A stretch of 28,585 bases of DNA from an uncultured Polaribacter sp. (GTDB lineage Bacteria > Bacteroidota > Bacteroidia > Flavobacteriales > Flavobacteriaceae), in assembly GCA_964595235.1 (NCBI GenBank), contig CAZQPD010000199.1, positions 1 through 28,585 of the forward strand, in the 5' to 3' direction. The notes below the pieces were generated by a model, which saw nothing but the letters and a program-made list of their open reading frames with translations, made no database searches and had not been told where the DNA came from. The position numbers and the translations under genes are program-made. Of the stretch, positions 219 to 18,087 are shown one piece after another. Position 1 is the first letter of the stretch, and every line of letters begins with the position of its first letter.

Positions 219-605
219 TTATTTGCTTTTTTCTCCTTTACAGGATTTCTTTTTTCCTTTGCAAGAAGACTTTTTGCCTTCACAACTTGTTTTTTTGGCG
301 CCTTCACAAGAGGATTTTTTGGTCTTACAACCGTCTTTCGACTTGCCTTTGCATTCAGCAGGGTTGCAGTTTTCTTTTTTGCAATCCTTTTTTTTGCAAT
401 CAGCCGGGTTGCAAGAGGCTTTTTCGATGGCTTTACCGGTGGTGCTTTCAGCTTCTCCTCCGGAGCCGCATTTGGATGTTTGGATTTGCGAAGATGCCGG
501 GACATATTTTGCAATTGTATTATCATTCCTTGAAAATGAGAATGATAAAATCACACCAAGGGTCAACAGTACAATTCCGGAATAAATGAAATTTCTTTTG
601 TTCAT
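219..605 (-). CDS. Small exported or membrane-anchored Cys/Lys-rich repeat protein (metallothionein-like, function unknown)
   Basis: N-terminal basic plus hydrophobic signal/anchor (MNKRNFIYSGIVLLTLGVILSFSFS). 11 Cys, in CNPA[D/E]C x2 and SC[E/K]G-type repeats. Has its own -7 box (632-639) and terminator. Confidence 0.75.
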   Translation of the reverse strand: MNKRNFIYSGIVLLTLGVILSFSFSRNDNTIAKYVPASSQIQTSKCGSGGEAESTTGKAIEKASCNPADCKKKDCKKENCNPAECKGKSKDGCKTKKSSCEGAKKTSCEGKKSSCKGKKKSCKGEKSK

Positions 606-620
606 GTCTCTAATGTTACA
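605..620. promoter_or_regulatory. Candidate operator, TGT-N10-ACA (minus strand TGTAACATTAGAGACA)
   Basis: 13/16 identical to the site at 11970-11985. Lies between the -7 box and the start codon. Confidence 0.45.
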
Positions 621-631
621 GTTATACGGGG

Positions 632-639
632 CAAATATA
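632..639 (-). promoter_or_regulatory. Bacteroidota sigma70 -7 element (TATATTTG)
   Basis: Exact TAnnTTTG match 26 nt upstream of the ATG at 605. Confidence 0.7.
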
Positions 640-646
640 ATAATTT

Positions 647-662
647 TGTAATATATGCTACA
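647..662. promoter_or_regulatory. Candidate operator TGTAATATATGCTACA
   Basis: Imperfect palindrome. 647-663 is 15/17 identical to 11970-11986. Lies just upstream of the -7 box. Confidence 0.6.
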
Positions 663-737
663 ATTAGCACTTTAGCCGGTAATCCGGTTCGCCGGAAACG
701 GGTGTATGTATGCTTGCCGATGTCTTTTCGTTCCGGA

Positions 738-1295
738 TTATAACAAAAACCACAAAAACAATAATGGAACCAGAAAACCGATAGCCGTATAAATACCTCC
801 CCTGCCCGAAATGCCTTTTTTGCCTTTCACCATGAAAAACGATGTAAGGGCGAGCAATATCAATGCCACGGCGAACAAATCGGAGAACCACATCCACCAT
901 TTGTGGGGGTTGTAGTGCAGGTAATTGACCTGGTAGAACAGGGGGCGTTTTCGTAGAAATTCCGCTCTGCCTTCTCCCGTTTTGGTATCGACCACCAGGG
1001 ATGACCCGCCTTTGAGAAATATTTTCAATATGTTTTCCTCCGGAAAATAGTACTTCTTATAGCCGCTGTACGGTGTTACTTCTGCTACTAACTTTCCTAC
1101 GGCTTCGCCGGAAATGTGCTCTTTGTCCAGTGGGATACCGGTGCGGAATTTTTTTATCTTGACGCTGTAATTCGGGTTCCAGTCGTTCAGGTGGTTCAGC
1201 GCAATGCCCGACAGGGCATATATCAAGGTGGTTCCTATGAAAAAATATCCGATATCGCGATGCAATATCCTGCTCCACTTTCGTAATGTTTTCAT
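738..1295 (-). CDS. PepSY-associated TM helix membrane protein
   Basis: Family-typical N-terminus (WSRILHRDIGYFFIGTTLIYALSGIALNH), a soluble loop, then YLHYNP and two C-terminal TM helices. Confidence 0.8.
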   Translation of the reverse strand: MKTLRKWSRILHRDIGYFFIGTTLIYALSGIALNHLNDWNPNYSVKIKKFRTGIPLDKEHISGEAVGKLVAEVTPYSGYKKYYFPEENILKIFLKGGSSLVVDTKTGEGRAEFLRKRPLFYQVNYLHYNPHKWWMWFSDLFAVALILLALTSFFMVKGKKGISGRGGIYTAIGFLVPLLFLWFLL

Positions 1296-1327
1296 GTGTT
1301 GGTTCGGTTTACAGTCCGAGTGGGGGA

Positions 1328-1843
1328 TTATCCTTTATCTTTACCGCTTATTACTTCATGGGAAATGTATTCCAACGAATAGAAAGACAGGTGGTCGGTC
1401 TTTGCTGTTTTCATGGAATCCCTGAAGAATTGCAATTGTTTCATCTTTTGGTCGTATATCTCCTGGCTGGTTTTCCCTTCTTTATGGTCGGTAATGTAGT
1501 CCTCCTCTTTCTGTAATATATAGGATTCATCTACTCGGAATTCCGCCACTTTACCCGTCAGTTCGAGTTCCTCACCTACGAGGGCTTCGTCGAAGCGGGT
1601 GCCGGAAGTTACGTGTACTTCACCGTGGTCGTCCACCAGCAGGATTTTCTTTCCGCCGTGCTTGCAGACATGATCGACTATTCCCCGTACCATGACGGGT
1701 TTTCCTACATAATCCCCGGCTTTGGCATCGAATTCCGCCAGGCTCAATAGCGGGACGGCGGATTCGCCGGTTTTGTCTTTCGGGCTGTCGTCACATGACC
1801 ACAAGGCGGTGAGCAAAACGAAAATGAGCAATGTTCTTTTCAT
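1328..1843 (-). CDS. Lipoprotein with probable OB-fold domain and HVCKH motif
   Basis: Lipobox LWS-C17. Beta-strand pattern YVGKPVMVRGIVDHVCKHGG...LELTGKV fits an OB fold. Starts 6 nt after the acyl-CoA dehydrogenase stop. Confidence 0.7.
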   Translation of the reverse strand: MKRTLLIFVLLTALWSCDDSPKDKTGESAVPLLSLAEFDAKAGDYVGKPVMVRGIVDHVCKHGGKKILLVDDHGEVHVTSGTRFDEALVGEELELTGKVAEFRVDESYILQKEEDYITDHKEGKTSQEIYDQKMKQLQFFRDSMKTAKTDHLSFYSLEYISHEVISGKDKG

Positions 1844-1849
1844 AGTATG

Positions 1850-3568
1850 CTATTCTTGAACGGTTATTTCCCTGTATTTTTCCATATCCTCGCAGGAAGA
1901 GTGTTCGATAAAATGAAACTTTGCGGCATTACGCGCTCCGGCGAAGGGGATGAATACCTGTGCCGGGCGGATGTAGTGTTCCTCCCGCATTCCGTCGATG
2001 AGTAAGATGTACCCCATCAGGATATTGCCGGCCATTTCCACGAGTCTGCGGGCGTGGAAGTCGAGATAGTCATCGCATCCGGCTTGCATTACCTTGTCTT
2101 TGGCTGTTTTGTAGCGGGTGGTCATTTCCCGGAGGGTAGCACGCAAATCGCCGTATGTATCCGGAATTTGAGCGTCGTAATGAGCTATTTGTTCGTCGAA
2201 CACATTCGTAGTCACCCCTTTGATGGCGGCGACTACTTGCAGCTGGGAAGTACCTTCGTAGATGGAGGTAATCCGTGCATCGCGGTAGATGCGTTCGATG
2301 GGGAAGTCTTTCATGAATCCTGTTCCACCGTGAATTTGCAGTGATTCGTAAGCGATTTCGTTACTGGCTTCGCTGCCCATGAGCTTGATGAGTGGGGTGA
2401 ATACATTGGCGAGTTTGTGGTAATGTTTCATCTCCATGCGTTCCTCGCGTTCGGGGCGTCTTTCGCGGAATATATCCTCGTAGGCTTTGACTATATCGAC
2501 GAATCTCGCCGTTTCGTAGAGTATCGACCGGAGGGCATCGATACGGGCTTTCATATTGGTCAGCATTTCATAGACGGGCGGAAATTCGATAATGGGTTTT
2601 TCGAATTGTTTGCGTTCGTGTGCATATTTCAGCGCTTCGCGAAATGCTGCTTCGGATATTCCCACCGATTGGGCGGCTACGCCGAGACGTGCCGAATTCA
2701 TCAGGGACATTACGTATTTGATGAGTCCGAATTTTTCACTTCCTACGAGTTCGGCGGGTGCGTTTTTGAATACCAACTCGGTGGTCGGGGAGCCTTTTAT
2801 TCCTAATTTTTTCTCCAAGTGTCTTATTTCTACTGCCTTGTTGTTCCTGTCGTAGATGAACATGGACAGTCCTCTTGCATCCTGGGTGCCTTCTACCGAC
2901 CGTGCGAGGACGAGGGAGATATGGGCGTCGCCGTTGGTAATGAAGCGTTTTACGCCGTTGAGACGCCATACGCCGGCTTTTTCATCGTAGTGTGCTTTGA
3001 GTTGGACGGCTTGCAGGTCGGAGCCGGCATCGGGTTCGGTCAGTACCATGGCAGCCGTGTCCCCGTCGCGGTTGAACCGGGGCAGGTATTTTTCTTTTTG
3101 TTCGTCGGAGCCGAATTCGTAGATGGTCTCCGCACAGTCTTGCAATCCCCAGATATTGGCAAATCCCGCATCGGCACGTGCTATCATTTCCCCCGCCATG
3201 ACATAGGGGACGATGGGAAAATTGAGCCCTTGGTATTTTCGTGGCAGCGTCATACCTATCAGCCCGGCGCGGTAGAGTTCGTCGTAGTTCTCACGGGTTC
3301 CGCGGGCATATACGACCTCGTTGTTCTCGATGCGCGGACCTTCGATATCGACGGATTCGGCGTTGGGGGCGATGGTACGTGCACAGATATCCCCGACGAT
3401 ATCCAGTACCCTGTCGTACGAATCGACGGCGTCGTCGAAATCGGCGGGGGCATGGTCACAAGTGTCCGCTTCGCTGAAATCGCGTTCGCGGAGTTGTACG
3501 ATTTTTTGCATCAGCGGGTGGGTGAGGTGGAATTTATATCCGGGTGTGTCTTTATAATAATTGCTCAT
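1850..3568 (-). CDS. Acyl-CoA dehydrogenase (Bacteroidales-type, with N- and C-terminal extensions)
   Basis: LTEPDAGSDL, NGVKRFIT, KLGIKGSPT, QIHGGTG and IYEGTSQ (catalytic Glu) motifs. Directly downstream of etfA. Confidence 0.95.
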   Translation of the reverse strand: MSNYYKDTPGYKFHLTHPLMQKIVQLRERDFSEADTCDHAPADFDDAVDSYDRVLDIVGDICARTIAPNAESVDIEGPRIENNEVVYARGTRENYDELYRAGLIGMTLPRKYQGLNFPIVPYVMAGEMIARADAGFANIWGLQDCAETIYEFGSDEQKEKYLPRFNRDGDTAAMVLTEPDAGSDLQAVQLKAHYDEKAGVWRLNGVKRFITNGDAHISLVLARSVEGTQDARGLSMFIYDRNNKAVEIRHLEKKLGIKGSPTTELVFKNAPAELVGSEKFGLIKYVMSLMNSARLGVAAQSVGISEAAFREALKYAHERKQFEKPIIEFPPVYEMLTNMKARIDALRSILYETARFVDIVKAYEDIFRERRPEREERMEMKHYHKLANVFTPLIKLMGSEASNEIAYESLQIHGGTGFMKDFPIERIYRDARITSIYEGTSQLQVVAAIKGVTTNVFDEQIAHYDAQIPDTYGDLRATLREMTTRYKTAKDKVMQAGCDDYLDFHARRLVEMAGNILMGYILLIDGMREEHYIRPAQVFIPFAGARNAAKFHFIEHSSCEDMEKYREITVQE

Positions 3569-3584
3569 TTGTGTTGCGTATTAT

Positions 3585-4604
3585 TTATTTGGTGTTGTTC
3601 TTATAAGCTTTTATCATTTCGGGGATGACCCTGTTCAGGTCACCGGTGATGACATAGTCCGCTATTTCGTTGATTGGGGCATGAGGGTCGGAATTGATGG
3701 AAATGATCAGCGAGGATTCTTGCATACCGGCAGTGTGCTGTACGGCTCCGGATATGCCGGCGGCGATGTACAGTTTGGGACGTACCGTTACGCCCGTCTG
3801 CCCTATCTGCCGGTCGTGGTCGATGAATCCCGCATCGACTGCTGCCCTGGACCCGCCGACCTCACCGCCGAGTAGTTCCGCCAGTTCGAACAATTGTTTG
3901 AAGTTCTCTTTGGATCCCACTCCATAGCCTCCGGCTATGATAATGGGGGCGTCTTTCAGGTTCACTTTACTCTCCTCTACGTGACGTTCGAGAATTTGAA
4001 CGGTGAAATGCGATTCGTCGAGTAGTGATTCGACGGGTAGAGCGATTATCTCACTAGTATAATTTTCGTCGAATATTTCGTTTTTCATTACGCCTTCCCT
4101 GACAGTCGCCATTTGGGGGTGCATTTCCCAATTGATGATATTGGCGATGATGCTTCCGCCGAAGGCGGGGCGGATGGCGTAGAGTAGGTTTTCGTAGGTT
4201 TTTTTCTCTTTCGACACATAGTGGTCACCGATATCGAGTATGGTGGTGTCCGCTGTAAGTCCGCAGCCCATAGCCGAGGCTACCCTCGGAGCCAAGTCCC
4301 TACCGGTGGCGGTGGCTCCGAACAGTACGATTTGCGGGTCGTGTTCGCGCAATACATGAATGGCGAGGGCGGCATGCGGAAGGGTGGTGTAGGGTTCCAG
4401 GCGCGGGTCGGTAGCGGTGAATATGGTGTCCACGCCGTATTTGGCGATTTGTTTTTCCACTCCTCCGGTCTTGGCACCGAATACCATGGCTTCGAGCTGT
4501 ACGCCCAATTTTTCAGCCAGCTTCTTGCCGGCGGATAACAGTTCGAGGCTGATGGATGCGACTTGTCCGTCTTGTATTTCACAATATACCGATACGTTTT
4601 TCAT
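3585..4604 (-). CDS. etfA: Electron transfer flavoprotein alpha subunit
   Basis: RPAFGG, GGSRAAVDAG, QIGQTGVTVRPKLYIAAGISGAVQH and INSDPHAPI FAD-binding motifs. Confidence 0.96.
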   Translation of the reverse strand: MKNVSVYCEIQDGQVASISLELLSAGKKLAEKLGVQLEAMVFGAKTGGVEKQIAKYGVDTIFTATDPRLEPYTTLPHAALAIHVLREHDPQIVLFGATATGRDLAPRVASAMGCGLTADTTILDIGDHYVSKEKKTYENLLYAIRPAFGGSIIANIINWEMHPQMATVREGVMKNEIFDENYTSEIIALPVESLLDESHFTVQILERHVEESKVNLKDAPIIIAGGYGVGSKENFKQLFELAELLGGEVGGSRAAVDAGFIDHDRQIGQTGVTVRPKLYIAAGISGAVQHTAGMQESSLIISINSDPHAPINEIADYVITGDLNRVIPEMIKAYKNNTK

Positions 4605-4622
4605 TACGAATGTTTTATGCGT

Positions 4623-5498
4623 TTATCCAATGGTGTGTTTTTCAATTAATTCCACGATGAGCCTGTCGATATCCTCTGCGGTGGCATCGAAGCGTTTGGA
4701 TTCGGCAGCGGTAAACGCCACGCTTTCGACGCTTTTTACCTTGGTGGGTGACCCGGCTAATCCGATGCGGGACGGGTCGGCGTCTATGGCTTCAACGTTC
4801 CATTCGTGGATAGTGAGTTCCGGATATAATTCGATACGGTGGCGTACCGTATCATTCGCTTTGGACATTTCGGAAGCTGACCGCGCATATTTGTATTTCA
4901 TCACCCTCTTTGCCACGGGTGGGCGGCATGCCGGGGCTTCCCCGTGAACGGTAAGCAAACAGGGTATAGGTGCGCGTACCAATTCGGTACCGTGGTCTAT
5001 CTTGCGGCGTACATCGATGTGGGACTCGCCGATATCTGTTATTTCCAGGGCATAAGTCACTTGTGGCAAGCCGAGTTTTTCGGCGGTTTGCGGACCTACT
5101 TGTGCCGTATCTCCGTCAATGGCTTGGCGTCCGCCGAATATCAAATCGTAATCTCCGATTTTCTTTATGGCTTGTGCCAAAGTATAACTGGTGGCGAGAG
5201 TATCGGCTCCACCGAAACGCCTGTCGGATACCAATATGGCTTTGTCGGCACCCCTGTACAGGGATTCTCTCATGATTTCGGCTGCTTTGGGAGGGCCCAT
5301 GGTCAGCACCGTCACATGGGAGCCCGGATGAGCGTCTTTGATTTTTAATGCCATTTCCAGTGCAGCCAGGTCATCGGGGTTGAATATGCTGGGCAACTTA
5401 CCGCGGTTTACCGTACCGTCGGGTTTCATCGCGCCGGGACCCACATTCCGCGTGTCGGGAACCTGCTTGACGAGGACAATGATGTTATAGGTTTTCAT
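4623..5498 (-). CDS. etfB: Electron transfer flavoprotein beta subunit
   Basis: KQVPDT, NPDD, DRRFGGADTLATS and GRQAIDGDTAQVGP motifs. Confidence 0.96.
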   Translation of the reverse strand: MKTYNIIVLVKQVPDTRNVGPGAMKPDGTVNRGKLPSIFNPDDLAALEMALKIKDAHPGSHVTVLTMGPPKAAEIMRESLYRGADKAILVSDRRFGGADTLATSYTLAQAIKKIGDYDLIFGGRQAIDGDTAQVGPQTAEKLGLPQVTYALEITDIGESHIDVRRKIDHGTELVRAPIPCLLTVHGEAPACRPPVAKRVMKYKYARSASEMSKANDTVRHRIELYPELTIHEWNVEAIDADPSRIGLAGSPTKVKSVESVAFTAAESKRFDATAEDIDRLIVELIEKHTIG

Positions 5499-5528
5499 AC
5501 CGGATTATGATTTCAAAAATTGGTGAGC

Positions 5529-5536
5529 CAAATTTA
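5529..5536 (-). promoter_or_regulatory. -7 element (TAAATTTG) for the etfB operon
   Basis: Exact TAnnTTTG match 30 nt upstream of the etfB ATG. Confidence 0.7.
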
Positions 5537-5709
5537 CTATTTGAATTTTTTTTTCGCCTGATATCGGTCAGGTTTTGGAAAAAATATATCCACATATTTT
5601 GTCCTTTTCCGGTATTTGTCTATGACACCGTCGAAAATTTCTGCCGGAATTTTCTGAACACACAGCCTTTGTAATTTCCGGCTGTTCCCGGATATTAAGG
5701 AAAATACCG

Positions 5710-5717
5710 TAACTTTG
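5710..5717 (+). promoter_or_regulatory. -7 element (TAACTTTG) for the helicase gene
   Basis: Exact TAnnTTTG match. It overlaps the ORF-track TTG at 5715, so the real start is probably downstream. Confidence 0.65.
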
Positions 5718-5747
5718 TTTGTCTTTCATTTCATAAAGAATTGTCAT

Positions 5748-8700
5748 TTGCCAGAAAACTCTTATTATACCGTTTATTCAGCTTCCGCCGGCAGTGGGAA
5801 GACTTTTTCGTTGGTGCGTGAATATTTGTATTTGTTGCTGAACCGTTCCGACCCGGGGTATTTCAGTCGCATCCTTGCTATAACTTTTACGAATAAAGCT
5901 GCACAGGAGATGAAAGACCGTATCATCGACAGCTTGCAGGAAATCGAAAGAGGGGAGCCTTCACCTATGCGGGAAGCAATAATGGGCATGACGGGGTTGG
6001 ATGCTCATACTTTGTCCCGGCGTGCAGGGAGGATATTGCAGAATATTTTTCTGAATTACGATGATTTACGTATTCATACCATTGATGCATTTACCCATGG
6101 GATTATCAGGACATTTGCCCGGGATTTTCATTTGCGTCAGGATTTCGAAGTTACTTTGGACGAAGAGGTGTACCGGAAAGAGGCTGTTATCCGTGTGTTG
6201 GATACTTTGAAAGAGGACAAAGCGCTTTCGGGTATTTTATTGGGATTTGTAGAGCATCTGATAGATGAGGACCGGTCATGGAATATACGGGGAGAACTCG
6301 AAAAATTCGCCAAGATGCTGGAATCCGGTTCTTACAAATATGAACTATCGAAGTATATCGACAAGGATACTTCCGGATTTTCCAGAATGCAAAAGGTATT
6401 ATTTTCGCGTATTAACCGTCTGAATAAAGAGATAAAGCGGATTGCTTCGGGTGCTTTGGAATATTTGATGGCACACAGTGATCCGGCATGGTATGACTAC
6501 AGGGCTTTGCCTATGTTTTTCGAGAAAGTTTCGGTTTCTGCCGATGTGACGGATGAATTGAAAAGACAATCCGTATCAAAAAGGATAGAACGGGGGAAAA
6601 TATTGAAAAAAGCGGGTCTCAAACACCTCGATCACGATGGGGAAATCCTCCGTAAACTTTATGACGACTACCACCGTATCATCGCTTTGGGCAGGGATAA
6701 GATATATTATTCATTATTGATAAAGGCGGTTCCCTTGACGGCTTCGCTTTCGTCGATATACCGGGAGATGTTACTATTGTTGGAAGAACGTAATGAAATG
6801 TTGCTCGGAGAATTCAACGGAATGATATCCCGCCATATCCGTTCGCACCCTGTACCTTATATTTATGAACGGTTGGGTGTGAAGTTGAGGAATTTTTTTA
6901 TCGACGAAATGCAAGATACCTCATTGGTGCAATGGGATAATATGAAATACCTTGCCGGCGAGGCTTTGTCAGCAGGTGGGAGCTTGATGTTGGTAGGGGA
7001 TGCCAAACAATCCATATACAGATGGCGCGGGGGAGAACCGGAACAGTTCATACACCTGTCCGACCCCGGATTGCCTTCTGATTTCGTACGGAAAAAAGAT
7101 GTCGTCGTTCTGTCGAATAATTACCGGAGCTTACGGGAAATCGTAGAATTTAACAACCGTTTTTTTAAATTTTGTGCCGGAGAAGTACTTACGAACGGGG
7201 AATACTACCAATTGTACGCCCGGACAGTGGAGCAAACACCTGTCCAACCGTCAGGCGGATATGTCCGCATAGATTTTATCGATACGGAATCCCAACCCGA
7301 TGATGCCCCCCCGCCGGTGCCTGATGCCGTACACCGGTTGGTTGAAGAATTGACGGATATGTACCAGCCCGGGGATATTTGTATATTGGTAAGAACCAAC
7401 AAGAAGGCTGCCGGATTGGCGGAATATCTTACCGGGAAAGGTGTCGAAGTGGCTTCCCCGGAGAGTTTGAAACTAAACAAGCACGCTGCCGTCCGGTTTA
7501 TCATCCATACTTTATATGCACTCCTTTATACCGGAGAACCTTTTTACCGTTTGCAAATGTTGTATTTCTTGCACGGACATACTGCACAGGAGATGCCCCT
7601 GCACGATTTTGTTTCCGGGCATTTGACCGGGGATGAGAATTCATTTTTTGACGGATTGAAAGAATTGGATTTGGATTTTGATGCGGGGATATTCAGAAGT
7701 TATACCCTGTATGAAGGTGTGGAATATATAATTCACGCTTTTCACCTCAATACCTCGGTTACGGCGAATGGTTATTTGCTGGGGTTCTCCAAAGAAGTAT
7801 TTTCTTACCAACAGAGATACGGCGGATCACTGTCAGGCTTCCTCGAATTCTGGGAAACCAAGAAAGATAAATTAGCCTTGCCACTGACCCGGAACAAGCA
7901 GGCGGTAAATATTATGACCATACACAAAGCCAAAGGATTGGAGTTTCCCGTGGTCATCATGGCATACAATGAAAGCTTATCGGGAAAAGGCGGGTATGTG
8001 TGGCTTCCGGTGCGCGAAGACCCGGAATGGGAAGGCTTCGATAGTTTTCTCGTTCCCCTTACCAAATCCTTTTCTTACCTTCCGGGCGAAGGGGAAGCCC
8101 TCTACCGTACAGGTGAAGAAAAAGCCGTTTTTGATAATTTGAACAATTTGTATGTTGCCTTTACACGGGCGGAAGAACGGCTGTATGCCGTTATGGATTA
8201 CAAGAGGAAGATAAGGTCCGGCACTTATGCGGACTTGTTGGAAAAATATTTGAAAAACATAGGTGTGTGGAATGCGGAAAGCCGTTCATATTCTTTCGGT
8301 GATGAGGTAGCGCTATTGTCTGTTGCCGGGGAGGAAACGCCCGGTGCTGACAAGGTTTTGTATTCGTATTCACTATCTTATCACGATAAGTACCTGATGC
8401 CGGAATTCGATGAAAAAACACCGGACACGGAGTTGCATCCCGCTCGAAAAGGAAAAGTTATTCATAAAATCTTATCATATATCCATACCCGTGAGGATAT
8501 AGATTTGGCATTGGAACATTACCGTTTCGACCCCGGTTTGCAGACGGATTTGGAATTTGGTCAAATGCGCGAAATATTGCACCATGTCACCGGACACCCC
8601 GGATTAGCCCCGTATTTTTCAGAAGGTGTTACTGTGTACAATGAGAGGGAAATCGTCGATTCCGGCGGGGAGTTACACATTCCCGACCGCCTTGTTTTAT

Positions 8701-8876
8701 TGCCTTCCGGCAAATGGGTAGTTATTGATTATAAAACCGGAGAACCCATAGAGTCCCACCGCAAGCAAGTGGACCATTATGCCCGCCTGCTCGAACAAAC
8801 CGGAAAACAGGTAGATAAAGCTCTGATAGTCTATATTGGGGATTCGGGAGTGCGACGTATTGTAGAGTCTGGTTGA
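5748..8876 (+). CDS. UvrD/REP-family helicase with C-terminal PD-(D/E)xK nuclease (AddA/RecB-like)
   Basis: ASAGSGKT, AITFTNKAAQEMKDR, IDEMQDTS, VGDAKQSIYRWRGG, MTIHKAKGLEF, LYVAFTRA and C-terminal PDRL...IDYKTG. Start moved from 5715 to TTG 5748 because the -7 box covers 5715; the start remains uncertain. Confidence 0.9.
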   Translation: MPENSYYTVYSASAGSGKTFSLVREYLYLLLNRSDPGYFSRILAITFTNKAAQEMKDRIIDSLQEIERGEPSPMREAIMGMTGLDAHTLSRRAGRILQNIFLNYDDLRIHTIDAFTHGIIRTFARDFHLRQDFEVTLDEEVYRKEAVIRVLDTLKEDKALSGILLGFVEHLIDEDRSWNIRGELEKFAKMLESGSYKYELSKYIDKDTSGFSRMQKVLFSRINRLNKEIKRIASGALEYLMAHSDPAWYDYRALPMFFEKVSVSADVTDELKRQSVSKRIERGKILKKAGLKHLDHDGEILRKLYDDYHRIIALGRDKIYYSLLIKAVPLTASLSSIYREMLLLLEERNEMLLGEFNGMISRHIRSHPVPYIYERLGVKLRNFFIDEMQDTSLVQWDNMKYLAGEALSAGGSLMLVGDAKQSIYRWRGGEPEQFIHLSDPGLPSDFVRKKDVVVLSNNYRSLREIVEFNNRFFKFCAGEVLTNGEYYQLYARTVEQTPVQPSGGYVRIDFIDTESQPDDAPPPVPDAVHRLVEELTDMYQPGDICILVRTNKKAAGLAEYLTGKGVEVASPESLKLNKHAAVRFIIHTLYALLYTGEPFYRLQMLYFLHGHTAQEMPLHDFVSGHLTGDENSFFDGLKELDLDFDAGIFRSYTLYEGVEYIIHAFHLNTSVTANGYLLGFSKEVFSYQQRYGGSLSGFLEFWETKKDKLALPLTRNKQAVNIMTIHKAKGLEFPVVIMAYNESLSGKGGYVWLPVREDPEWEGFDSFLVPLTKSFSYLPGEGEALYRTGEEKAVFDNLNNLYVAFTRAEERLYAVMDYKRKIRSGTYADLLEKYLKNIGVWNAESRSYSFGDEVALLSVAGEETPGADKVLYSYSLSYHDKYLMPEFDEKTPDTELHPARKGKVIHKILSYIHTREDIDLALEHYRFDPGLQTDLEFGQMREILHHVTGHPGLAPYFSEGVTVYNEREIVDSGGELHIPDRLVLLPSGKWVVIDYKTGEPIESHRKQVDHYARLLEQTGKQVDKALIVYIGDSGVRRIVESG

Positions 8877-8910
8877 TAGTTTTGAGTGGATAGTTATTAG
8901 TTGATAGTTG
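8873..8910 (+). repeat. Degenerate heptamer tandem repeat (TTGATAG-type, 5 units)
   Basis: In-phase units TTGATAG TTTTGAG TGGATAG TTATTAG TTGATAG TTG. The helicase TGA stop lies in the first unit. Confidence 0.7.
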
Positions 8911-8915
8911 GCGCA

Positions 8916-9133
8916 TGTCATTTCGACCGGAGGGAGAAATCTTTTGATTATTATTCCTGGGTTATTTGAAAAGATTCCTCCTCACTCGTGCCTCGCTCGT
9001 TCGGAATGACAGTCGCGCGTGTCATTTCGATACGGAGCGGTAGCGGAGTGAGAAATCTTTTGGTTTTTACTCTTGCTTTTATTGGAAAGGTTCCTCCTCA
9101 CTCCTCGTTCCTCGTCGCTCATCCGGAATGACA
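8916..9133. repeat. REP/BIME-like palindromic repeat cluster (two full units, 8916-9011 and 9020-9133)
   Basis: Each unit runs TGTCATTTCG...GAGAAATCT-spacer-AG(A/G)TTCCTC...CGGAATGACA. Lies between convergent genes and matches the cluster at 3-131. Confidence 0.88.
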
Positions 9134-9216
9134 AGGTGCTCCGGGAGTCGCTTTGCTGCAATGGCGGTGCTGACAACCAGGGTTTTACGGCAGAATCTTG
9201 ATTAGCATATGCCGGA

Positions 9217-10110
9217 TCAGGACTCATATCCGAACCGGCGTAGTTTGTCCTTGTCTTTGCGCCAATTTTTGTTCACTTTTACATGGAGTTCGAGAAAGAT
9301 TTTCTTTCCGAAGAACTTTTCCAAATCTTTCCGCGCCTCACTGCCGACGCGTTTGAGTCCTTTCCCTTTGTGTCCGATGAGGATGCCTTTCTGCGAATCC
9401 CGCTCCACCATGATGACGGCACGGATACGTATCAGCCGGTCGCTTTCTTTGAAGCTCTCGGTTTCCACCTCTACCGAATAGGGAATTTCTTTCCGGTAAT
9501 GCAGTAAGATTTTCTCCCGGATGCTTTCGTTGACGAAAAAACGTTCGGTTTTGTCCGTCAATTGGTCTTTCGGAAAATACGGTGGACCTTCGGGCAGTAG
9601 CTCTACGATACGGTCGAACACTTTGTCGATATTGAACCTTTCCAATGCGGATACCGGGATGACTTCGGCTTGCGGGAGTTTTTCCCGCCAATACGCCATT
9701 TCGCGCATGACCGTTTCTTGGCTGGATTTGTCTATTTTATTGAGCAAAACCAACACGGGGATATCCGTACGGTTGATGCGCCGGAAAAATTTCTCGTTGC
9801 GCAATTTTTTTTCACCGGTTTCCACCATATAAATCAGAATATCGGCGTCGTCCAGAGCGGATTGGACGAATTTCATCATGGCTTCTTGCAGTTCATAAGC
9901 GGGGCTGATGATGCCCGGGGTGTCGGAAAATACGATTTGATACGAATCCGTATTTACGATGCCGAGTATCCTGTGGCGGGTGGTTTGTGCTTTCTTGGTG
10001 ATGATGGAGAGCCGTTCTCCTACCATGGCGTTCATCAAAGTGGATTTTCCCACATTGGGGTTCCCGATGATATTGACGAATCCGGCTTTGTGTTTTTCCT
10101 GTTGTTTCAT
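9217..10110 (-). CDS. era: GTPase Era
   Basis: GNPNVGKS, QTTR, DTPG and NKID GTPase motifs, plus C-terminal KH domain (REKIL...EIPYS, GILIGHKG). Confidence 0.98.
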   Translation of the reverse strand: MKQQEKHKAGFVNIIGNPNVGKSTLMNAMVGERLSIITKKAQTTRHRILGIVNTDSYQIVFSDTPGIISPAYELQEAMMKFVQSALDDADILIYMVETGEKKLRNEKFFRRINRTDIPVLVLLNKIDKSSQETVMREMAYWREKLPQAEVIPVSALERFNIDKVFDRIVELLPEGPPYFPKDQLTDKTERFFVNESIREKILLHYRKEIPYSVEVETESFKESDRLIRIRAVIMVERDSQKGILIGHKGKGLKRVGSEARKDLEKFFGKKIFLELHVKVNKNWRKDKDKLRRFGYES

Positions 10111-10114
10111 ACGG

Positions 10115-10122
10115 CAAAAGTA
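10115..10122 (-). promoter_or_regulatory. -7 element (TACTTTTG) for era
   Basis: Exact TAnnTTTG match ending only 4 nt before the ATG. Confidence 0.6.
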
Positions 10123-10179
10123 AGGCTATTTTGCCTATTAGTCCCATGGATGTGAACAGGTTCCTTTCCGGCAATTTGC

Positions 10180-11541
10180 CTATTCATCCCTGCCGGACGG
10201 AATGACTTCTTTCAAAGTAGAGAAAAAATACTTTATCAATATTTTGCCGGCAGGCATAAGAATCCATGTAAGGGAAATGAATATTCCCCATCCAGAATAA
10301 AACATCGTTCGATACCACGGTATCAGCCCGTCTTGCAATACGGCAAACGGTACAGGCATATCCTCCGCCATCCAGCGGCTTTTTCCGATACCCGCCATAA
10401 ACAAGGATATGAGGAATACCGCCAATGAGATATTGAGCAGGGCAAAGGCGTATTGCAAACCCTTGCGTACCGAAAACCCGGGATGCAACCCGGAGCTGAT
10501 ATAGAGAATGGCCGATAGCAGAATCATCGTATTGATGCCTATCATGCTCCCCATGGTATGGGTGACCGTGATGTGTGTGCCGTGGGTGTGGTAATTGATA
10601 GCCGGGATGGAAATGAGCAAGGCGAGTATCAAATTGACAAATATCCAAAAGTCAGCTGCCAGCATGAACTTGTAAGCGATGAGATGATGACGGCGCTTCT
10701 CTCTTTTCATCGACTTGATAAAGGTGAAAATGATATTCAATAATATCACCCATTCGGTCATACTCATCAGATAAGATGTGATACGTACCCACGGGCGGGT
10801 AGGTAGAATGTATATATGGTGAGCCCAACCGAACATCAAATTGGCAAGCCCGAGAAAATAAAAGAAAAACACCTTCTTGCCTCGCGCCAATGAATCATCC
10901 CCCTTAATTTTACACATCAAATAGATGGAAAGTCCGTAAACCAGTTGATTCCATGAGCCAACGAACGAACCTACTGATTTCCATTGAATGGTAAAATCGC
11001 GGATAAAATTCTCCCTGAAATATGGCAATACCCAAAAGTGCGCCTCTATCAAATGATATATCATAAACACCATACCGGTTCCCCACATCCAGTAATATAC
11101 AGGCATGTCTTGTGCGCGTAATCTTGCATTTTTCAGATAATTGACAGCAAAAAATACCCAGCCGGCAAGTATTCCTATCATAATCACGGGTGCAAATACG
11201 AAAAATTCACGCCCACCTACCTTGCCGGTGATGATGGATAGGTAAATGGCAGCCCCCGATATCAGAAAGATATAGAAATGCCATTTAATCAACGACAACG
11301 ACAAGCCGCGTTTCCCCTCTTTTGCCATCAGAAAATAATAAATACTTCCCGTGGCGGAAAGCACTATCCATGATACCGACGATACCACATGAATGGGGCG
11401 GATCTTGGCAAAATGCCAAAAATCCTTGGTAAAATCAGGATGGAGATATTGATATGACGCCCAAAGCCCACCTGTAACGCTAATGAACAATGAAACAAGT
11501 GCGAGAAACAGGAACGATAAAATGTATTTTTTTCCTTTCAT
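10180..11541 (-). CDS. Divergent heme-copper oxidase superfamily subunit I, NorB (cNOR)-like, with non-canonical active site
   Basis: About 12 TM helices. RPIH, GGREF, GWAHH, SMTE and NYHTHGTHITVTH match NorB motifs, but the HLWVE motif is absent. Start set at ATG 11541 because it forms an ATGA overlap with the upstream stop (ORF track gives 11562). Confidence 0.85.
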   Translation of the reverse strand: MKGKKYILSFLFLALVSLFISVTGGLWASYQYLHPDFTKDFWHFAKIRPIHVVSSVSWIVLSATGSIYYFLMAKEGKRGLSLSLIKWHFYIFLISGAAIYLSIITGKVGGREFFVFAPVIMIGILAGWVFFAVNYLKNARLRAQDMPVYYWMWGTGMVFMIYHLIEAHFWVLPYFRENFIRDFTIQWKSVGSFVGSWNQLVYGLSIYLMCKIKGDDSLARGKKVFFFYFLGLANLMFGWAHHIYILPTRPWVRITSYLMSMTEWVILLNIIFTFIKSMKREKRRHHLIAYKFMLAADFWIFVNLILALLISIPAINYHTHGTHITVTHTMGSMIGINTMILLSAILYISSGLHPGFSVRKGLQYAFALLNISLAVFLISLFMAGIGKSRWMAEDMPVPFAVLQDGLIPWYRTMFYSGWGIFISLTWILMPAGKILIKYFFSTLKEVIPSGRDE

Positions 11542-11966
11542 TTGGTTTTGATTTCTACCCATCCGTTTTTTAGAAAACGGGCTTGTTTGTTAGGATAATA
11601 CCCTGTGGAATCCACTGCCCGGAGGAAAGCGGTAAGAGCTTCTTTCTCCCGTTCGCCGAATTGGTATTCCGGCATGTGACGTATCCCGCTGTTCAATATC
11701 CCGCGGATGTATTCCGGACCTTTGGAAGGATGTGAATGGATATTGGTCAAATCAGGACCCAAATATCCGCCCAATCCGTATATCTGATGGCATGCGCTGC
11801 AATTGTTCTTTTGCCAAATGTCCTGCCCGCGTATGGCTGCACGGGAGAGGCGGTGTGATACAATATGTGCATCACCCGTATAAACGGCATAGTTGTAAAA
11901 TACAAAAGCGATAACTAATATAACCAGTATCAGTTTGTTATAAAAAGTGCGCCGCATCGACTCCAT
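11538..11966 (-). CDS. NorC-like membrane-anchored monoheme cytochrome c
   Basis: N-terminal TM helix. GQDIWQKNNCSACHQIYGLGGYLGPDLTN (CxxCH in a NorC-like context) and distal Met in HMP. Confidence 0.88.
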   Translation of the reverse strand: MESMRRTFYNKLILVILVIAFVFYNYAVYTGDAHIVSHRLSRAAIRGQDIWQKNNCSACHQIYGLGGYLGPDLTNIHSHPSKGPEYIRGILNSGIRHMPEYQFGEREKEALTAFLRAVDSTGYYPNKQARFLKNGWVEIKTK

Positions 11967-11969
11967 TTG

Positions 11970-11985
11970 TGTAACATTTGCTACA
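11970..11985. promoter_or_regulatory. Candidate operator TGTAACATTTGCTACA
   Basis: 16-bp imperfect palindrome overlapping the -7 box and likely start site of the norC-like gene. Near-identical copies at 647-662 and 605-620. Confidence 0.6.
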
Positions 11986-11991
11986 AATATA
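11984..11991 (-). promoter_or_regulatory. -7 element (TATATTTG) for the norCB-like cassette
   Basis: Exact TAnnTTTG match 17 nt upstream of ATG 11966. Confidence 0.7.
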
Positions 11992-12033
11992 AGGTTTTTA
12001 TTTTCCCGTATGATGCGTTTCGGATAGCTTTAT

Positions 12034-12041
12034 TACCTTTG
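12034..12041 (+). promoter_or_regulatory. -7 element (TACCTTTG) for the decarboxylase operon
   Basis: Exact TAnnTTTG match 20 nt upstream of ATG 12062. Confidence 0.7.
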
Positions 12042-12061
12042 TAGAATCGTAAAACTATTTT

Positions 12062-13471
12062 ATGGATGAATTATTCAGAAAGGTAGAAGAGATTATCCGC
12101 AGGAAATATTCGGAAGAGCCCGGCGTACCGGTTTCGGATACGGAGTTGCTTTCACCGGAAGAATTAAGCGATGGCATTGCCTTGAAAGTAGGCGAACAGG
12201 GGCTGTCGGAACCGGAGCTGGTGGAGTTGTTGGAGAAAGTATATCACCACAGTATCCGGACAGGCAGTGTGTATTTTATGAACCAAATGTTCGGCAGTGT
12301 ACAGAAGGCGGCATGGCTTGCCGACATCTTACTGCCCGTATTCAACACATCCGTATATACGTATGAGGTGGCACCGGTGTTCACCCTGATGGAACGTGAG
12401 GTGATAGCCGCATTATCCGTCGAAATATGGGGGAAAGAAGGCGACGGGGTATTTACCGGTGGTGGGAGTTTGTCGAATATGTATGCCATGTATCTGTCGT
12501 TGATCCGGGCTTCGGAGCAGTGGAGAAAAACAGGGGTGGCGGGCGCACCGCCTTATGCAGTTTTCGTATCGGACCAAGCTCATTATTCATTTACCAAAGG
12601 GGTGTCGTTCCTCGGGCTGGGGGAGGATGCCTTGTATCCGGTACCGTCGGGAGGAGATTCCGTCATCACCGCAAAGGCTTTGGAAGAGACGATAGAACGC
12701 AGTATGGCGGATGGCAGGAAGCCCTTGATGGTCACCGCCATAGCCGGTACGACCAAGTCCGGAAGCATTGACCCGCTGGAAGAGATAGCGGAAGTGGCGG
12801 AACGTTTCGGCTTGTGGTATCACGTAGATGCTGCATTTGGCGGAGCCCAATTATTCCACCCGGAATACCGGAACAAGCTAAAAGGAATAGAGCGGGCTGA
12901 TTCGGTCATTTGGAATTTTCACAAAGTCATGGGTATGCCGCTTTCCACTTCGTCGTTTCTCGTACGCCGTCAGGGGCTTTTGAACGGGGCGTTTTCGGTA
13001 GAAGCGGATTACCTGTTTCACGACGAAGACAGCCGTTTTGATTTGGGGCAAAAATCCCTGCGCGGCGGCAGGCGCCCGGATGTGTTTAAGCTCTGGCTCA
13101 TGTGGAAATACGCCGGTAAGAAAGGCTTGTCGCAGCATGTGGAACGCCTGCAACGCTCGGCGGAGGATTTTTCCCGTATGATAGATTCACATCCCGAAAT
13201 GGAGCTCTATGCTACCCCCGCCACTTCGATAGTCTGCTTCCGGTACAAGCCCCCGCATATCCGTGACGGACGGGAGCTCGACAAACTCAATGTGGAAATC
13301 AGGACACAAATCGTAAGGAAGGGTAAAATGTTGTTCAATTACACCCGTATCCGGGGAAATATCTATTTGCGAACGGTGGTATTGAATCCGGAGATAGAGG
13401 AAAGACATTTCCGGCATATCATCGATACGGTAGTAGAGACTGCTCATAAAGTATTGAACCCCGTATCATGA
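12062..13471 (+). CDS. Group II PLP-dependent amino acid decarboxylase (GAD/CSAD/GADL1-like)
   Basis: FMNQMF, NTSVYTYEVAPVF, GGSLSN, AHYS, HVDAAFGG, WNFHK (PLP Lys288) and GRRPDVFKLW. Confidence 0.9.
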   Translation: MDELFRKVEEIIRRKYSEEPGVPVSDTELLSPEELSDGIALKVGEQGLSEPELVELLEKVYHHSIRTGSVYFMNQMFGSVQKAAWLADILLPVFNTSVYTYEVAPVFTLMEREVIAALSVEIWGKEGDGVFTGGGSLSNMYAMYLSLIRASEQWRKTGVAGAPPYAVFVSDQAHYSFTKGVSFLGLGEDALYPVPSGGDSVITAKALEETIERSMADGRKPLMVTAIAGTTKSGSIDPLEEIAEVAERFGLWYHVDAAFGGAQLFHPEYRNKLKGIERADSVIWNFHKVMGMPLSTSSFLVRRQGLLNGAFSVEADYLFHDEDSRFDLGQKSLRGGRRPDVFKLWLMWKYAGKKGLSQHVERLQRSAEDFSRMIDSHPEMELYATPATSIVCFRYKPPHIRDGRELDKLNVEIRTQIVRKGKMLFNYTRIRGNIYLRTVVLNPEIEERHFRHIIDTVVETAHKVLNPVS

Positions 13472-16661: not shown

Positions 16662-16671
16662 CCTTGTCATT

Positions 16672-16723
16672 GTGAGGATAGATTTGAACCTGCTTGCAAC
16701 CTCGTGAAAAAATGCTAAAACGG
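16672..16723 (+). ncRNA. SAM-II-type riboswitch aptamer
   Basis: P1 GUGAGG/CCUCGU encloses GAUUUG...GCUUGC and is followed by an A-rich linker and GCUAAAA. This is the order of conserved SAM-II elements, and it lies in the 5' leader of metK. Confidence 0.82.
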
Positions 16724-16827
16724 TACCCCTGGCAGTACAGGAAATCCCGGAAGCATTTTTGAGTACGAAACGGCGCAAAGGTTCATCCTTCGCAGGGCAT
16801 TGTTGTATAATAAAAAGTGTAAAAGAT

Positions 16828-18087
16828 ATGTCCTATTTTTTTACTTCGGAATCCGTGTCGGAAGGGCATCCGGACAAGGTGGCGGATCAAATTTCCGACC
16901 GTCTGTTGGATGAATTTTTAGCTTTCGACCCCAAATCGAAAGTAGCGGTAGAGACCCTCGTGACCACCGGACAAGTGGTGGTGGCGGGAGAAGTGCGCAG
17001 CAAAACCTATGTCGATATTCAGCGTATCACCCGGGATACGATAAAAAGGATAGGCTATGTGAAGGACGATTATTTTTTCTCTTACAAATCCCTCGGGGTT
17101 TTGTCTGCTATTCACGAACAATCGGAAGATATCAACAGGGGAGTGGTCAGGGATACGGCGGAACAACAAGGAGCCGGTGACCAAGGCATGATGTTCGGAT
17201 ATGCCACTGCCGAAAGCGGCAACTACATGCCGTTGAGTTTGGATATAGCCCATAAGCTGGTATATACCTTGGCGGAGATACGTAAGTCGGGGCGGCAAAT
17301 GACCTATTTGCGTCCTGATGCCAAGAGCCAGGTGACAGTGGAATACGACGACACACACCGTCCCGTCAGGGTGGATACTTTGGTGCTATCTACCCAGCAC
17401 GACCCCTTTCATCCGGAGGATGAGGTTATGTTGGAGACCATTCGCAGGGATGTACGTGAGATACTTATTCCCGCTTTGTTGTCTGAAAATCCCGGATGGG
17501 AACCGCTGTTTTCCGGTTACCGTTTGTTGGTGAACCCTACCGGGAAATTCGTCATCGGCGGACCTCACGGCGATACGGGATTGACGGGGAGGAAAATCAT
17601 CGTGGATACCTACGGCGGACACGGTGCGCACGGCGGAGGGGCATTTTCGGGCAAAGACCCGAGCAAGGTGGACCGTTCCGGGGCGTATATAGCCCGGTAT
17701 ATCGCCAAGAATATGGTGGCTGCAGGCGTAGCCCGCAGAATGTTGATACAAATATCCTATGCCATCGGTGTGGCGGAACCCGTCAGTATATATGTCGATA
17801 CGTTCGGTACGGCTACCATAGAAGGCGGCGACCGGAATATAGCATTGCGTATTCCGGAATTGTTCGACCTGACACCTGCAGGTATAGAGCGCCGTCTGCA
17901 ATTGCGGAAACCCATATATGCCGAAACCGCCGCTTACGGGCATTTCGGACGGAGTCCGCGCAAAGTTACCAAGCATTTCGAACGTTTCGATTATACCGAA
18001 GGGCGTATCATAGCCGAGGATATCGAAGTGGAATTGTTCACGTGGGAACGGCTCGATATGGTAGAGGAAATCCGCAAAGCCTTCTGA
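16828..18087 (+). CDS. metK: S-adenosylmethionine synthetase
   Basis: [40 protein letters not shown] and [10 protein letters not shown]. Start at ATG 16828 (MSYFF), not the ORF-track start at 16759. Confidence 0.98.

Follow-up and report, generated by a model that had tools for sequence, protein, structure and literature searches.

Crp/Fnr-family proteins of the HcpR2 branch recognise the consensus GTAACnnnnGTTAC (GTAAC-N4-GTTAC, 14 bp), and their specificity has been tied to a change of Glu181 in CRP to Pro (Rodionov et al. 2005, PMC1274295). The HcpR2 proteins described so far activate hcp in anaerobes (PMC1274295). For HcpR, a role as repressor of some targets was also suggested, and nor promoters with a downstream NsrR site were described (PMC1274295). 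A haem- and nitric oxide (NO)-sensing HcpR is known from Porphyromonas gingivalis (PMC12750200). We found nothing usable in the literature on where HcpR sites are placed relative to promoters in Bacteroidetes. Here we describe two dyads resembling the HcpR2 consensus in a stretch of 28,585 nt from an uncultured Polaribacter sp. (contig CAZQPD010000199.1), which is referred to as the window. Dyad A lies in the promoter of an operon encoding a cytochrome c (cyt c) and a haem-copper-oxidase (HCO) superfamily subunit related to the nitric oxide reductase cNOR, and dyad B lies about 11 kb away, in the promoter of a gene encoding a Cys-rich protein. As a candidate shared operator the two sites are plausible and partly supported. 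The firmer result comes from the comparison of orthologous cassettes, which points to family-wide Crp/Fnr-type control of this cNOR-related cassette.

The initial annotation of the window had matched the 17-mers TGTAATATATGCTACAA (647-663) and TGTAACATTTGCTACAA (11970-11986) at 15/17 positions, and a third copy on the minus strand (copy C, 605-620) to the latter site at 13/16. On re-reading the window, these coordinates, sequences and identities proved to be exact. Dyads A and B are imperfect inverted repeats, each with 6 of 8 complementary pairs, and they deviate from symmetry alike and in the same orientation, with GCTAC in place of GTTAC. The pattern TGTA-N8-TACA occurs exactly twice in the window, at A and at B, both times in a promoter, and consensus scans of the window agree with the earlier remark that the motif was not seen at the other promoters. 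The geometry, a 5-N4-5 dyad inside TGT-N10-ACA, is of the Crp/Fnr type, as had been proposed. The flanks of the dyads align no further than the promoter elements, which speaks against a mobile element or a larger repeat carrying the dyads. Another candidate, GTAAC as the -35 element of an extracytoplasmic function (ECF) sigma factor, was rejected by eye, a suitably spaced -10 element not being found.

In the window, genes at the head of an operon are preceded by a -7 box of the Bacteroidetes type (TAnnTTTG), which starts 28-39 nt before the ATG, and the cyt c gene and the Cys-rich gene share an identical box at an identical spacing (Table 1). In Bacteroides and Flavobacterium promoters, transcription starts approximately 7 nt after the -7 box. 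Dyad A overlaps the last TG of the cyt c -7 box, which supplies its own first TG, and its centre follows the G of this box by 6.5 nt, approximately at the predicted transcription start. In the other direction, the same centre precedes the -7 G of the divergent decarboxylase gene by 63.5 nt. Dyad B ends 7 nt upstream of the -7 box of the Cys-rich gene; its centre precedes the G of this box by 22.5 nt and falls into the spacer that separates the expected -33 element from the -7 element. Copy C starts 11 nt downstream of the box, within the 5' leader, and extends into the ATG. Thus, the placement had been given correctly, with two copies flanking the -7 box of the Cys-rich gene and the third site overlapping that of the norC-like gene. 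For the two dyads the term repressor-like is also apt, since both are located in core promoters, where a bound protein would hinder RNA polymerase. A perfect -7-like box on the plus strand, TAATTTTG (641-648), is found back to back with the -7 box of the Cys-rich gene. Its TG corresponds to the first two bases of dyad B, which repeats the combination of box and dyad seen at the cyt c promoter, and no plus-strand gene follows this box.

Table 1. Sites, predicted promoter elements and genes of the window, and GTAAC-type dyads of related loci (a dot means that no strand is assigned)
Feature	Sequence	Position	Strand	Remarks
Dyad A	TGTAACATTTGCTACA (GTAAC-ATTT-GCTAC)	11970-11985	.	HcpR2 consensus 9/10
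Dyad B	TGTAATATATGCTACA (GTAAT-ATAT-GCTAC)	647-662	.	HcpR2 consensus 8/10
Weak copy C	TGTAACATTAGAGACA	605-620	-	single good half-site; HcpR2 consensus 8/10
Predicted -7 box, cyt c-HCO operon	TATATTTG	11984-11991	-	starts 34 nt before likely ATG
Predicted -7 box, Cys-rich gene	TATATTTG	632-639	-	starts 34 nt before ATG
Predicted -7 box, decarboxylase gene	TACCTTTG	12034-12041	+	
GTAAC-type dyad, L068	GTAACATCAGTTAC	5477-5490		perfect match
GTAAC-type dyad, L074	GTAATAACAGTTAT			56.5-57.5 nt upstream of -7 G
GTAAC-type dyad, L067	GCAACTTATGTCAC			56.5-57.5 nt upstream of -7 G
GTAAC-type dyad, L073	GTTACATTAATTAC			56.5-57.5 nt upstream of -7 G
Membrane-anchored mono-haem cyt c (CxxCH), NorC-like subunit		11538-11957 (open reading frame to 11966)	-	Pfam PF13442, PF00034
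HCO superfamily subunit I, 460 aa, distantly related to cNOR NorB		10180-11562	-	Pfam PF00115
Cys-rich protein, 128 aa, N-terminal membrane anchor, Cys/Lys-rich tail		219-605	-	no Pfam or NCBIfam match
Divergent pyridoxal phosphate (PLP)-dependent decarboxylase		12062-13471	+	

Among the nine motifs tested on the dyads, that of HcpR2 gave the best match. The TGTAACA-like motif, which had been attributed to HcpR2 in the initial annotation, is real, and the published consensus is the one to which the dyads are compared in Table 1. The consensuses of CRP, FNR, delta-proteobacterial HcpR, NssR, NsrR, Rex and CopY/BlaI were matched less well. At the three sites, the NsrR (Rrf2) operator gATGyAT-N5-ATrCATc was matched at only 7/12, 8/12 and 6/12 positions and the Rex operator TTGTGAA-N6-TTCACAA at 10/14, 9/14 and 7/14. 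The CRP-type operator TGTGA-N6-TCACA reached 7/10 at all three sites, the best match to TGAY-N4-RTCA near the dyads was 5/8, and a CopY box is present in the flanks only and not in the dyads. The likeness to HcpR2 boxes lies in the 14-bp 5-N4-5 dyad, though counts at such stringency are near chance window-wide, in the nitrogen-oxide-related target enzyme, and in dyads of the same class upstream of the orthologous cassette in four loci of the nearest clade. In contrast, hcp belongs to the HcpR2 regulons described so far, which are activated and are known from anaerobes, whereas no hcp gene is present in the window, its sites are on core promoters (a repressor position), and its host is not a strict anaerobe but a member of Flavobacteriaceae with Na+-NQR and an HCO. 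One of the two putative targets is the cNOR-related HCO and the other a protein without a family match. The dyads are not established members of the HcpR2 regulon class.

With the consensus used in the initial annotation, four strand matches are found in the window against 0.48 expected, but this test is circular, since the consensus was derived from the sites. As an independent probe we used the published HcpR2 consensus GTAACNNNNGTTAC, both in the whole 28.6-kb window and in its 2.1 kb of intergenic DNA. The whole window showed no enrichment, with one match at up to one mismatch (0.67 expected) and eight at up to two mismatches (9.0 expected). In the intergenic DNA, the single match at up to one mismatch is dyad A (0.04-0.07 expected) and there are three matches at up to two mismatches (0.6-0.9 expected, P 0.02-0.06), overall a modest enrichment with P between 0.02 and 0.07. 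In a pair test, two intergenic 16-mers had to be dyad-symmetric at 6/8 pairs or more each and identical to each other at 14/16 positions or more. A and B are the only qualifying pair, and any such pair was obtained in 1.15% of 2000 dinucleotide-preserving shuffles. The enrichment and pair tests are post hoc and mutually non-independent, and a realistic P for the joint occurrence of both sites is 0.01-0.05, which is borderline. Copy C, which the initial annotation had counted as a member of the same system, does not hold up: it is a half-site at background frequency, an ordinary two-mismatch match of which about nine are expected per window, and it therefore adds no support. Probably it is not a site.

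We compared approximately 190 orthologous cyt c-HCO loci from genomes and metagenomes (L numbers). Two other contigs of the same population as the window, L065 and L066, are near-identical to it (3 differences in 10.6 kb) and are uninformative for conservation. Of 115 non-redundant promoters, 51 have an FNR-like box, TGAY-N4-RTCA, within 140 nt of the cyt c ATG, compared with none of 115 reversed controls; in a second promoter set it was found in 43 of 75. The fuller form of the box is T-x-TGAY-N4-RTCA-T-A (promoters of L004-L064, L075-L154 and L243-L322), which in L013, for example, is approximately 70 nt before the ATG. In 17 cases with a strict -7 box, the FNR-like box is centred 36.5 nt before the -7 G, at a class-II-like activator position. 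The activation of nor and oxidase operons by FNR, DNR and NnrR (TTGAT-N4-ATCAA near -41.5) is matched in this way by about half of the orthologous cyt c-HCO promoters, while the dyad of the window differs from this system in half-site (GTAAC and not TGAT) and in position.

Further, about 30 loci have a gene for a Crp/Fnr protein no more than a few kb away from the cassette, and the same box is present in the promoters of these genes. One type of regulator, 196-199 aa long, with the FNR-like helix GLRVETVIR and lacking a Cys cluster at the N-terminus, is found beside the cassette in L007 (512-1108) and has orthologues in L011, L013, L019, L021, L024, L026, L027, L029, L030, L036, L039, L040, L043, L045, L060 and L063. 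Its own promoter contains the box TATGAY-N4-RTCATA at the same distance, which suggests an autoregulated local activator. In other loci the regulators are FNR-like, with approximately 240 aa and the helix TTETxIR. Judging from these sequences, the cyt c-HCO cassette family is typically under Crp/Fnr-type control, often via an adjacent regulator. In the window, no such box is present at the -36.5 position, where it reads CTATCCGAAACGCA, and none at the -57.5 position, which is used in the nearest relatives.

In the nearest clade, the decarboxylase and cyt c genes are arranged divergently, as in the window, in L068, L069/70, L074, L235, L238 and L242. L073 probably shares this synteny; its divergent upstream gene touches the contig end and is unannotated. 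In four nearest-clade promoters (those of L068, L074, L067 and L073), a GTAAC-type dyad precedes the cyt c -7 G by a fixed 56.5-57.5 nt, with non-conserved sequence between this dyad and the -7 box. A half-site is kept in L072, L075 and L242. The perfect sequence GTAACN4GTTAC was found twice in 588 kb of loci, both times in cassette-linked promoters: at L068:5477 and at L007:428, directly upstream of the FNR-type box of the regulator gene that heads a regulator...OsmC-cyt c-HCO cluster. It seems from these sequences that GTAAC-type boxes are used by some of the nearest relatives of the cassette. At up to one mismatch to the window dyad TGTAAYNNNNGYTACA, no promoter of the orthologous loci matches except that at L007:427. 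On the conservation in orthologous promoters, proposed earlier as a check, the sequences give a mixed picture: four relatives have dyads of this type, about 180 other promoters have none, and in none of the approximately 190 promoters is there one at the position found in the window.

Two further observations were made on these promoters. In L007 (426-460), upstream of the regulator gene, the FNR-type box TATGACAATTATCATA directly adjoins a perfect 18-bp palindrome, TTGTAACGAATGTTACAA, the only case of this kind among the orthologues. The promoters of L067-L075, L235-L242 and L002 have a conserved extended -7 region, (G/A)AAT(C/G)TATAGTA(C/T)xTTTG, directly in front of the cyt c -7 box; this region is lacking in the cyt c promoter of the window.

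We tentatively favour the view that A and B are operators for one dimeric regulator, probably a Crp/Fnr protein with HcpR2-like specificity, which acts as a repressor. Such a helix-turn-helix regulator would be encoded elsewhere in the genome and would bind both dyads; most likely it would belong to the Crp/Fnr family and have an HcpR2-like recognition helix (half-site GTAAC or GTAGC, 5-N4-5). Bound to dyad A, it would cover the start site together with the last bases of the -7 box, and bound to dyad B, it would fill the spacer between the -33 and -7 elements. At these positions a bound dimer would exclude RNA polymerase, resulting in joint repression of the cyt c-HCO operon and the Cys-rich gene. 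An effector would alter the DNA affinity of the regulator. It is tempting to speculate that this effector is NO or the redox state, a natural guess in view of the target and the family, or else a metal signal. Copy C would be outside this system. The earlier proposal of one regulator for both loci thus stands in part: the Crp/Fnr-type geometry and the location of A and B in core promoters argue for it, and what remains of it are two sites at a borderline joint P, the third copy being background.

Several observations weigh against a shared operator. An identical asymmetric half, GCTAC, in the same orientation in A and B is unexpected for symmetric sites that evolve independently. The described HcpR2 proteins are activators, to which a placement at the -7 box and start site is ill-fitting; the centres, +6.5 and -22.5 nt from the -7 G, are not at an activator position. 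Neither L069 nor L235 nor L238 of the nearest clade has a GTAAC dyad, and a dyad over the -7 box or start site is found in 0 of the approximately 190 orthologous promoters. The Cys-rich gene is nearly an orphan, and its promoter is therefore without a comparator. Neither a regulator gene nor an hcp gene is present in the window. At the level of statistics, the whole window shows no enrichment of the HcpR2 consensus, the criteria of the pair test were set once the pair had been seen, and shuffling removes the promoter elements which supply the first TG of dyad A.

These points lead to chance as an explanation, which we consider almost as likely as the shared operator. Two AT-rich Bacteroidetes-type promoters, with TTG or TTTG followed by TA, could yield similar imperfect palindromes without a common protein. 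In line with this, the whole-window counts are at expectation, and 16-mers with 14/16 identity are estimated to occur many times in 2 kb of AT-rich DNA, so that the dyad requirement alone makes the pair rare. Dyad A takes its first TG from the -7 box, dyad B is abutted by the plus-strand -7-like box, the position is not conserved in the orthologous promoters, and the third copy is background. However, chance has to be reconciled with a pair-test P of approximately 0.012 and with the intergenic enrichment, and it leaves as a coincidence that the motif agrees with a published Crp/Fnr specificity class and with the dyads that precede the orthologous cassette in members of the nearest clade.

A less likely alternative is that dyad A alone is functional, as a Crp/Fnr-type box which represses the cyt c-HCO operon, acts on the decarboxylase gene, or both, and that dyad B is fortuitous. 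The centre of A is approximately 70 nt upstream of the predicted decarboxylase start, a class-I-like position, and A is the sole match at up to one mismatch in the intergenic DNA (P 0.04-0.07), whereas B is of the two-mismatch type expected there about once. The orthologous intergenic region harbours the perfect dyad of L068 and weaker ones in L074, L067 and L073, and the block with the Cys-rich gene (219-1843) is lineage-specific. On the other hand, the dyads of the relatives are fixed with respect to the cyt c -7 box and variable with respect to the decarboxylase, and dyad A, at +6.5 and -63.5, fits neither; moreover, the 14/16 identity of A and B would be left unexplained.

We consider it very unlikely that a repressor from a different family (Rrf2/NsrR-like, Rex, BlaI/CopY or metal-sensing), bound downstream of the promoter, links the haem-metal enzyme with a Cys-rich metal-binding protein. 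Positions in the core promoter are typical of repressors, the pair of HCO and Cys/Lys-rich protein would fit a metal signal, and the nor promoters with a downstream NsrR site on record (PMC1274295) offer a parallel. NsrR represses nor, hmp and hcp, and the window resembles this system in the placement at or downstream of the promoter of the NOR-like operon, but it differs in consensus and in spacing, which for NsrR is N5 between 6-mers. Rex, CRP and CopY consensuses were poor matches as well, as described above. Finally, RNA hairpins in the 5' leaders are effectively refuted: the sense strand of dyad A can form a 6-bp stem including a G-U pair, but the fold energies (-4.8 and -5.2 kcal/mol, z-scores -0.8 and -1.3) are indistinguishable from those of shuffles, dyad B is upstream of the predicted start and folds differently, and no Rfam family is found at the dyads.

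If true, the shared operator would be a first functional handle on the near-orphan Cys/Lys-rich protein, via a poorly understood cNOR-related haem-copper enzyme of Flavobacteriia, and an example of a Crp/Fnr box shifted from an activator to a repressor position. It is improbable, in our view, that in addition an ancestral upstream activator box was replaced, that an HcpR2-like Crp/Fnr protein now represses at the core promoter, and that the Cys/Lys-rich protein was recruited to its regulon. Such recruitment would imply a functional partnership, for example in metal or NO handling, between the near-orphan protein and the cNOR-related enzyme, possibly a member of the proposed HCO-type nitrous oxide (N2O) reductase family. 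While the operator of the window is a two-site prediction of an ordinary kind, the cassette-wide Crp/Fnr control helps to predict the expression of putative NO- or N2O-reducing enzymes in marine and freshwater Flavobacteriia.

Concerning the genes themselves, the label NOR-like given to the cassette is fair: the nearest solved structures of the HCO are NorB 4xyd (E 8.6e-8) and 3o0r (E 7.9e-5), although these are weak matches. Its best homologues are 57-65% identical, and none exceeded 65% in a search of 5.8 billion clusters. In the alignment of the HCO (10180-11562, minus strand) with NorB, the helix-VI motif HLWVEGTWE, which we take to be the FeB-ligand motif of NorB, faces SFV-GSWNQ, which is invariant in the clade. 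Reading the HCO sequence by eye, we found no Tyr six residues before the HH pair, presumably the position of the cross-linked Tyr of cbb3 oxidases. A cNOR-related putative 'N2O red' HCO family was proposed from Flexibacter (Murali et al. 2024, PMC11214002), and the HCO family of the window may correspond to it. In the orthologues, the CxxCH motif of the cytochrome c is located 52-53 residues from the N-terminus, and the start codon in the window is therefore probably the ATG at 11957 and not that at 11966.

For the Cys-rich protein, a word-index search gave no homologue. An exhaustive HMMER scan of 1.84 billion representatives revealed a single one, P0122 (124 aa, 45% identity), which is encoded on a 3,031-bp JGI contig and shows the same anchor and Cys/Lys-rich tail; this indicates that the gene is real. 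Together with genes for a 171-aa lipoprotein-like protein and a PepSY_TM-like protein, it forms a lineage-specific block on the minus strand (219-1843), and this three-gene block was absent beside the acyl-CoA dehydrogenase gene in 80 relatives. The acyl-CoA dehydrogenase of the window is 72-79% identical to its counterparts in Flavobacteriaceae metagenome-assembled genomes, which places the organism in this family.

The ENA contig ERZ27262694:k141_159926 (32.8 kb) contains the window and an extra 4.2 kb. The earlier remark that no regulator gene is present in the window was borne out and extends to these 4.2 kb, in which we likewise found no gene for a transcription regulator or Crp/Fnr protein. 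The remaining genes of the window encode Era, HflX, EtfAB, acyl-CoA dehydrogenase, enoyl-CoA hydratase, MetK, Rho and Na+-NQR. A comparison of 9217-13471 of the window with L067-L074 and L235-L242 showed that the nearest clade has kept the divergent decarboxylase gene beside cyt c-HCO; this gene is followed by GH26 in the window, L068 and L074. Downstream of the HCO gene, relatives have ApbE and an MGMT-like gene, and the window has Era. The sole Rfam match in the window is a SAM-II riboswitch (RF01726, 57.6 bits) at 16668-16728 on the plus strand, directly upstream of the S-adenosylmethionine synthetase gene (16759-18087).

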